DNA of 64,000 bases, taken from NCBI GenBank assembly GCA_963555755.3, contig OY820905.2, forward strand, positions 2,336,001-2,400,000, read 5' to 3'. The translations under genes were made by a program, and so were the position numbers. The notes below the pieces were generated by a model. It was not told the DNA's origin and did not search any database. It was given only the letters and a program-made list of their open reading frames with translations. Source of the DNA: Nitrospirales bacterium. GTDB taxonomy: Bacteria; Nitrospirota; Nitrospiria; Nitrospirales; UBA8639. Of the stretch, positions 16,916-18,321 are shown piece by piece (positions within the stretch are counted from its first letter, which is position 1; every line of letters begins with the position of its first letter).

Positions 16916-17107
16916 CCCCAGTTCCTAATGCTTCGCGCAAGAATAACTTTCCCTGTTTGGGTGCTGAGACGCCTGACTGGCAAGGCGAGAGGACTGCACA
17001 TACTCCTCGTATGGGCCTGTTGAATATTTCACTCCAACAGCCCCAAAAAGCTCCAGATGAGCCACGCATCGTCAGTGGGAGGGAATGTTCAAAAAAGCAT
17101 GCCCTTG

Positions 17108-17113
17108 TATAAT
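17108..17113 (+). promoter_or_regulatory. -10 box (TATAAT) of the IS110 circle-junction promoter; -35 TTGACT at 18299-18304
   Basis: Joining the ends at the CT core gives TTGACT-17 bp-TATAAT. Confidence 0.85.
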
Positions 17114-17119
17114 GCAAGG

Positions 17120-17345
17120 AAGGGTTGTAGTCCAACTCACCCGAGCTGCCTCTTGTCTGAAGAGGGCATAGCCAACGTAGGGAAAAGGCTGTACCCTCAC
17201 GGTATTGTGAATCCTGGCATGATAGACCGTTTGCCCTATGGGAATCAGCCCGTGACTCAGCGCAGGTCGTCATGCCCTTTCTCTGATGAACCCGAACGGT
17301 TGCCTGGGACACCAAGCCCGTATCAACAAGGTTGGGAGACAGAGC
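17120..17345 (+). ncRNA. Putative bridge RNA (boundaries approximate)
   Basis: Target loop: GTTTGCCCT (17229-17237) and GACTCAG (17254-17260) inside stem GGCATGA/TCATGCC. Donor loop: ACGGTTGC (17296-17303) and ACAAG (17326-17330). Confidence 0.8.
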
Positions 17346-17346
17346 G

Positions 17347-18321
17347 ATGAAATCAAAATCCTCAGAATTGTTTATCGGTATCGACATTTGTAAAGCTCGA
17401 TTAGACGTGGCAGACAATGCCAATTCGCTTCCATGGTCGGTAGCCAACAACGACGCCGGCATCGCCGCGCTGGTGGAGCGGCTCCACGTCCTTCACCCCA
17501 CTCTCATCGTGATGGAAGCCACAGGGGGGCTGGAAACGCTTCTGTATGCGGCCTTAACCACCGCCGGGTTGCCGGCGGTCGTCATGAATCCCCGTCAGGT
17601 GCGGGACTTTGCCAAGGCCCTGGGCACCCTGGCCAAAACCGATGCCCTGGACGCCCGAATCTTGGCTCGCTTCGGGGCGGCGATCCAACCGGCGGTCCGG
17701 CCCATGAAAGACGCCACCACCCAGGAATTGACGGCCTTGGTGACACGGCGACGGCAGTTGCTTGCCATGCAGACGGCGGAAAAAACCCGCTTCCAGCAAG
17801 CAGCCAAATGGATCCGCAAAGATATCAACGCCCATATCGCCTCCCTGGAAAAACGGCTCCACACAATCGAAGGTCATATTGCCGAGATTATTAAACAGAC
17901 CCCCGGCTGGAAAGAGAAAGATTCGCTCCTTCGAAGTGTGCCGGGGGTGGGCAACGTTTTGTCAATGAATCTCCTCAGTAGCCTGACCGAACTCGGAACG
18001 CTCAACCGAAGAGAAATCGCCACGCTGGTGGGCGTTGCCCCCTTAAACCGCGACAGCGGAAACGTGCGCGGCAACCGAAGGGTCTGGGGAGGCCGGGCCC
18101 AAGTCCGCGCCGCCCTCTACATGGCGGCCCTGTCCGCATCACGATTTAATCCGGTCATCAAAACATTTTATCAACGCCTGATTGCACAAGGGAAAAAACC
18201 CAAAGTGGCCCTCACCGCCTGTATGCGAAAACTTCTGGTCATTCTGAATACGATGGTCAAAACCCAAACAGCATGGAACCCCAATCAATATTCAACCCTT
18301 GACTTTAATCACGGTTGCTGA
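17347..18321 (+). CDS. IS110 DEDD recombinase/transposase
   Basis: IGIDICK, MEATG, KTDALDA, SVPGVG, RDSG; GGAG RBS. Confidence 0.96.

Follow-up and report, generated by a model that had tools for sequence, protein, structure and literature searches.

The window, that is, the whole stretch of 64,000 nucleotides analysed here, contains an intact, multi-copy insertion sequence of the IS110 group which is IS621-like and whose features are collected in Table 1. When one of its two cores is counted, this element is 1214 bp long. It shows the layout of the IS110 group: a long left end (241 nt), predicted to bear an RNA, and a short right end. Its recombinase gene begins with an ATG preceded by GGGAG. 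The protein possesses the domains PF01548 and PF02371 and scores 209 bits against the NF033542 profile, for which the cut-off is 140, which places it in the IS110 family. It matched two solved structures only, those of ISCro4 (PDB 9T56) and IS621 (PDB 8WT6), and its residues D18, E62, D104, D107 and S242 (in a 329-aa numbering) align with D11, E60, D102, D105 and S241 of IS621. The nearest named relatives of the element lie in Nitrospirota genomes, at 81-89% identity; in a search of plasmids the best-ranked matches were about 50% identical and 12 records lay at 60-80%. A DDE transposase of 540 aa (PF01609) is encoded on the minus strand at 19962-21584, 1.6 kb downstream of the element. Positions 1-4 of the window belong to the right end of a further copy of this IS (G000:C1:2334791-2336003) and a third copy is found about 5 kb past the window end (C1:2405167), which makes 3 copies within about 72 kb.

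Table 1. Position and basis of the features of the IS110 element and of its target (all on the + strand; positions are those of the window)
Feature	Position	Strand	Basis or remark
Host repeat, left part: terminal inverted repeat and left target GCATGCC (17097-17103)	17081..17103	+	
IS110 element including both CT cores	17104..18319	+	filled against empty site; 12 near-full copies
Left core CT	17104-17105	+	
Right donor arm TGTAT, overlapping the -10 box TATAAT (17108-17113)	17106..17113	+	
Predicted bridge RNA, ~225 nt	17120..17345	+	ends inferred from promoter and donor-loop stem
Target-binding loop with closing stem	17216..17276	+	consensus fold with compensatory changes; sub-fold
Scaffold GT, likely equivalent to G48-U49 of IS621, not guide	17229..17230	+	IS621 template, structure, no covariation
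Left target guide slot TTGCCCTA	17231..17238	+	17232-17237 match target positions 4-9
Right target guide GACTCAG and handshake CG	17254..17262	+	7/7 with target positions 8-14
Left donor guide ACGGTTGC	17296..17303	+	8/8
Right donor guide AT-[CA]-ACAAG and handshake GT	17322..17332	+	ACAAG at 17326
DEDD/Ser recombinase gene, 324 aa	17347..18321	+	PF01548, PF02371, NF033542, PDB 8WT6 and 9T56
-35 box TTGACT of the junction promoter, within coding sequence	18299..18304	+	17-nt spacer after end joining
Right core CT	18318-18319	+	with left donor arm ACGGTTG: 18311..18319
Host repeat, right part: right target GAGTC, rest of the hairpin module, body, terminal inverted repeat	18320..18440	+	
Empty target in another host-repeat copy	42956..42975	+	core 42963-42964

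We searched the genome (4.62 Mb in 2 contigs) for copies of the element and found 12 near-full ones at 92-100% identity and one 3' fragment. The left junction reads GCATGCC-CT in 12 of 12 copies and the right one CT-GAGTC in 12 of 13, and 11 copies show both; at the sole deviating right junction, the right end has been replaced by another multi-copy element. No copy was thus found at an unrelated sequence, as one would expect from the original prediction, which had described this element as an orthologous IS110 recombinase system with the bridge RNA layout of IS621. The comparison of filled and empty sites shows that insertion is scarless, at a short core CT common to target and donor; this core had been read correctly both at the filled site and at the empty 20-mer, and so had the reconstructed donor junction ACGGTTG-CT-TGTAT, whose left arm runs from 18311 on and whose right arm starts at 17106. 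The most diverged copy (92%, G000:C1:2149031-2150870), which is the one with the replaced right end, has kept both target guides; the replacing element is about 655 bp long, has 8 further copies in the genome and contains an open frame which resembles a transposase fragment. In another copy (G000:C1:344222-343016), 6 bp of the donor-loop stem are missing immediately 5' of the left donor guide; this copy may be trans-mobilised or impaired.

Four strings of the left end had been proposed as guides, GTTTGCCCT at 17229, GACTCAG at 17254, ACGGTTGC at 17296 and ACAAG at 17326, and all four are present at these places. When the left end was shuffled 20,000 times with its dinucleotides preserved, the four guide matches came out in order 0 times and the two target matches in order 14 times. 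To follow these guides across homologs we fetched 180 homologous loci, 162 of which had a + strand match; 82 of these were parsed and the other 80 left aside, because of a partial gene (18), a missing target-loop anchor (37), left end (16) or right end (7), or short flanks (2). The 82 parsed loci yielded 50 distinct guide pairs, the present element being one of them. For the right guide, 220 of 250 comparisons with target positions 10-14 are matches (mean after shuffling 117.9, maximum 151 in 10,000 shuffles), and the left guide, in the best of three registers, matches target positions 3-7 at 212 of 250 (shuffled mean 142.7, maximum 164), it being understood that such shuffle tests overstate the case, because the homologs are kin. 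The first handshake base of the donor loop complements target position 7 in 49 of 49 cases (45 C-G, 3 T-A and 1 A-T). On the donor side, the handshake at donor position 7, a nearly invariant position, fits in 48 of 50 and the left donor guide equals the donor over 7 nt in 47 of 49, with five donor types, an agreement which is partly built in because the parser required donor-like ends. The covariation of guides with target and donor which the original prediction called for does therefore exist among homologs. In other genomes, homologs occupy different targets that their own guides match; together with the precedent of IS621, this natural covariation suggests that the recombinase is putatively programmable.

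The consensus fold of 49 sequences contains 30 pairs, 14 of them with a compensatory change. It consists of two stem-loops with large internal loops, as in known bridge RNAs, in which the target guides stay unpaired, and its target loop fits the bottom-left and top-right parts of the target and covaries with it. The folding of the single sequence 17114-17346, by which the structure was to be checked, turned out to be uninformative: its z of -0.73 is no better than that of shuffles and the guides are partly paired with each other. Our description of the bridge RNA structure is hence based on covariation and not on this fold. The long 5' region of the predicted RNA is specific to the near clade. 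At the gathering threshold of Rfam, no family was found over the element, and one tRNA was found elsewhere in the window.

The left target guide had been given as 9 nt long with 7 matches. The string is correct but its length is not, since its GT is that of a CCGT scaffold. In the IS621 template (supplement of PMC11208160), nine guide bases stand between CCGT and TGGG, and in the IS621 structure C47-U49 form a linker with a conserved G48 (PMC11208158); the present element reads CCGT, then TTGCCCTA, then TGGG, and because of this parallel we take G17229-T17230 as scaffold. The short register of the left guide is found in 9 of the 50 homologs, where this G faces G in 3, C in 3, A in 2 and T in 1, and the base which follows it matches the target in 0 of 9. 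We considered a left guide of 9 nt and rejected it, as the genome contains neither GTTTGCCCTGAGTC nor TTTGCCCTGAGTC (0 occurrences) and the G shows no covariation. To judge from the sequence, the left guide probably pairs over only 6 bp (target positions 4-9), beside a full 7-nt right guide (8-14). These 6 matching bases in an 8-nt slot fall short of the left guide length of 8-9 nt stated in section 6 of PMC11208160, which is a feature of the IS621 template and not of the IS110 family. Naturally longer right guides have already been reported (section 9 of PMC11208160). The right donor guide likely contains a 2-nt bulge, by analogy with IS621.

Joining the two ends of the element creates TTGACT-17-TATAAT, which by sequence match is sigma-70-like, and TTGAnn-17-TAT is found across the joined ends in 44 of the 50 homologous guide pairs. 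A promoter scan of the integrated form gave no + strand promoter over 16800-18500, which is expected if the promoter arises on end joining. The left end is covered by contigs from two metatranscriptome runs, both of one study; such contigs show neither the ends nor the strand nor the level of an RNA. Among the joints listed for the contigs of 7 distinct runs there was no end-to-start joint of a circle; contigs drop rare forms.

We now turn to the target. It had been called a short hairpin repeat: there is indeed a hairpin, but it is a module of about 24 bp within an element which, without the IS, measures 146 bp in all and is bounded by terminal inverted repeats. This host repeat has 158 paired copies, 61 of which contain the target. 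The lengths listed for it, 118, 142 and 166 bp, form a series which is consistent with hairpin modules of about 24 bp being added to an inverted-repeat element of about 118 bp. The genome holds 183 empty modules of the form CCTGAG-N4-9-CGAAGG. Empty sites are left in number: 65 exact 20-mers, and 81 matches to target positions 4-14, of which 75 lie in such hairpins, the other 108 hairpins not matching these positions. A second, related repeat segment (16932-17060 of the window), directly upstream of the left inverted repeat of the host repeat, precedes most of the filled and empty sites. Homologs 48-63% identical to the present element (L035-L122, from Dehalococcoidia genomes and metagenome contigs) target the hairpin family CCTGAG...GAAGG, sometimes in tandem arrays (L052). 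We considered assigning the hairpin to the CGTC or GTAG family of REP sequences and found no support for it in the main text of PMC3733652, which contains no CTGAG. Finally, an exact 14/14 match to the donor junction, of which 0.03 were expected by chance, is found at G000:C1:735341, inside an unrelated coding frame and without any IS; recombination using the donor loop only might hit it as an off-target or rearrangement site.

The single target site of all the copies and the covariation of the guides both support the layout and orthology of the original prediction, and we estimate at about 0.9 the probability that this is an IS621-type IS110 element with one target site and likely bridge-RNA-guided transposition. 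The steps which follow are inferred from IS621. Read-through transcription would yield a little RNA and protein, allowing excision; weak read-through transcription followed by excision is described for IS621 in PMC13626964. The circle would then be released and its joined ends would switch the promoter on. The RNA of about 225 nt would bind the recombinase, one of its loops pairing with the junction of the circle while the second pairs with the target, and the top strands would be exchanged at CT, with the help of handshake bases which at position 7 fit the non-cognate partner alone. The part of the target that is recognised is likely positions 4-14 (6 + 7 bp, with the core in common), which is shifted to the right of the natural positions 1-11 of IS621. 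Insertion completes the stop codon of the transposase. The hairpin module of an abundant repeat is likely a safe and renewable landing pad. A preprint (10.64898/2026.08.31.748434) argues for a single-stranded circle and copy-and-paste, which, if it applied here, would suit the accumulation of copies.

The host repeat is itself multi-copy and bounded by terminal inverted repeats, with all its paired copies, so that one may ask whether a single old insertion was multiplied with it, the IS no longer selecting targets. At the 7 comparable filled sites, however, the host halves differ by 3.9% on average, as against 3.2% for empty ones and 0.9% for the IS copies, and host and IS distances are uncorrelated (rho -0.08). 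Since the host halves vary like empty sites, with no correlation to the IS distances, the insertions look independent, and we rejected co-mobilisation with the host repeat. The other targets occupied by homologs elsewhere, each matched by their guides, also speak against such passive spread, which we consider very improbable. Still less credible is a protein which alone reads the target or the hairpin, the guide-like strings being remnants. It is true that metatranscriptome contigs covering the left end cannot demonstrate an RNA, but position-by-position covariation that includes the handshake base, along with conserved stems, goes against this reading. So does the distribution of the insertions: none was found in the 108 related hairpins which lack positions 4-14, against 75 empty matching ones, and if shape alone chose, the probability of all insertions falling in the matching hairpin type would be about 3e-5 (computed for 13 insertions).

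Another reading keeps the guides as necessary and adds the target hairpin, or the inverted-repeat element, as a second gate of specificity, as in ISPpu10. The left guide is short, every insertion lies in a hairpin, the same hairpin family is used in 14 of the 50 homologous guide pairs, and ISPpu10 provides a precedent (10.64898/2026.03.19.712850). On the other hand, 36 of the 50 do not match the hairpin pattern. This genome cannot separate sequence from structure, because 75 of the 81 empty matches already lie in hairpins, and we regard such a gate as a possibility to be held tentatively, below recognition by the guides as such.

The recombinase gene raises a question of its own. In other IS families, stop codons completed by the target are known. 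Here the element contains no stop: the TGA consists of the T of the core (18319) and of the GA of the target (18320-18321), and this is so in all 11 complete copies of the genome. Among 69 distinct elements the same arrangement occurs in 11, of which two come from this genome, and 0 read on into the flank. In 29 of the 58 elements with an internal stop, GA, AA or AG comes next, which puts the chance rate of a stop-completing target at one half. In a tree of 63 proteins (6 rows dropped) the target-completed stop appears in three or four places, a scattered placement which is no more than suggestive. In the circle, translation in this frame would go on for another 81 codons, through the bridge-RNA region, to a TGA overlapping the start codon; the predicted read-through product has 405 aa in 10 copies and 403 in one. 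Close relatives whose left ends show 24-61 differences have this frame open too; in L045 it is closed. We found no support for coding selection on it: the differences fall 39, 32 and 44 times on codon positions 1, 2 and 3, without bias, and 18 of 57 elements which never translate the frame (these have shorter left ends, 158 nt on average) also have it open. A functional switch between states, the integrated form giving the 324-aa recombinase by means of the target stop and the circle giving the 405-aa form, is in our opinion unlikely. Were it true, one form could be more active or more stable than the other, or the RNA could be remodelled by translation, with excision biased against insertion in either case; two guide bases would moreover be locked to a stop-completing target. 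We found no report of a target-completed stop in IS110 in the literature consulted, which included parts of 10.1101/2024.04.26.591405.

It remains to compare this element with known systems. The bridge recombination system of IS621 is described in PMC11208160 and PMC11208158 (PDB 8WT6). The two elements share the protein domains, the D/E/D/D/S residues, the CT core, a left-end RNA with two loops (here a predicted one), the junction promoter, the scaffold CCGT...TGGG...GT, a donor loop ending in GT-AT-NN-NCAAG-GT-TGG, the post-exchange handshake and a palindromic repeat as target, and their donor 14-mers are identical at 11 of 14 positions. They differ in that the protein is distant (phmmer E 5e-35), the left slot has 8 nt with 6 matches and not 9, the natural right guide has 7 nt where IS621 uses 4, the RNA is predicted at about 225 nt against 177, the target repeat is another one and no stop codon lies within the present element. 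ISCro4, or IS622 (10.1101/2025.05.14.653916; PDB 9T56), has the same 14-base, CT-core, handshake layout and is the best solved-structure match to the recombinase (E 6e-37); it is enterobacterial and 88% identical to IS621, however, whereas the present element belongs to a distant lineage. As in ISPpu10 (10.64898/2026.03.19.712850), all the copies lie in one repeated intergenic sequence with a stem-loop, but the stem-loop of ISPpu10 extends the target on its 5' side and here the core is at the foot of the hairpin. The IS1111 group has the same DEDD recombinase family; its RNA lies in a long right end, while here the left end is the long one and the gene reaches the right core.

The family, the mechanism and the use of palindromic repeats are already established (PMC11208160), and IS110 elements have been mined by the thousand (section 6 of the same paper). 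The donor 14-mer of our element occurs 110 times in one file of its supplement and 61 times in another; the longer junction string and the target string were not found in the parts of this supplement that were searched. Perry et al. screened 72 orthologs, and a relative of the present element might be among their supplement entries. We found no paper joining bridge RNA, IS110 and Nitrospira. As the mechanism is already established, the gain is incremental: it consists in a distant, multi-copy bridge-recombinase ortholog of which every part can be read, and in 13 filled and 81 empty sites which can serve as a natural test bed. The 6 + 7 layout raises the question of the minimum length of a left guide beside a full right guide, which bears on the design of bridge RNAs. 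As for the target-completed stop, it would tie two guide positions to the C-terminus of the protein and thereby constrain both natural and engineered retargeting.
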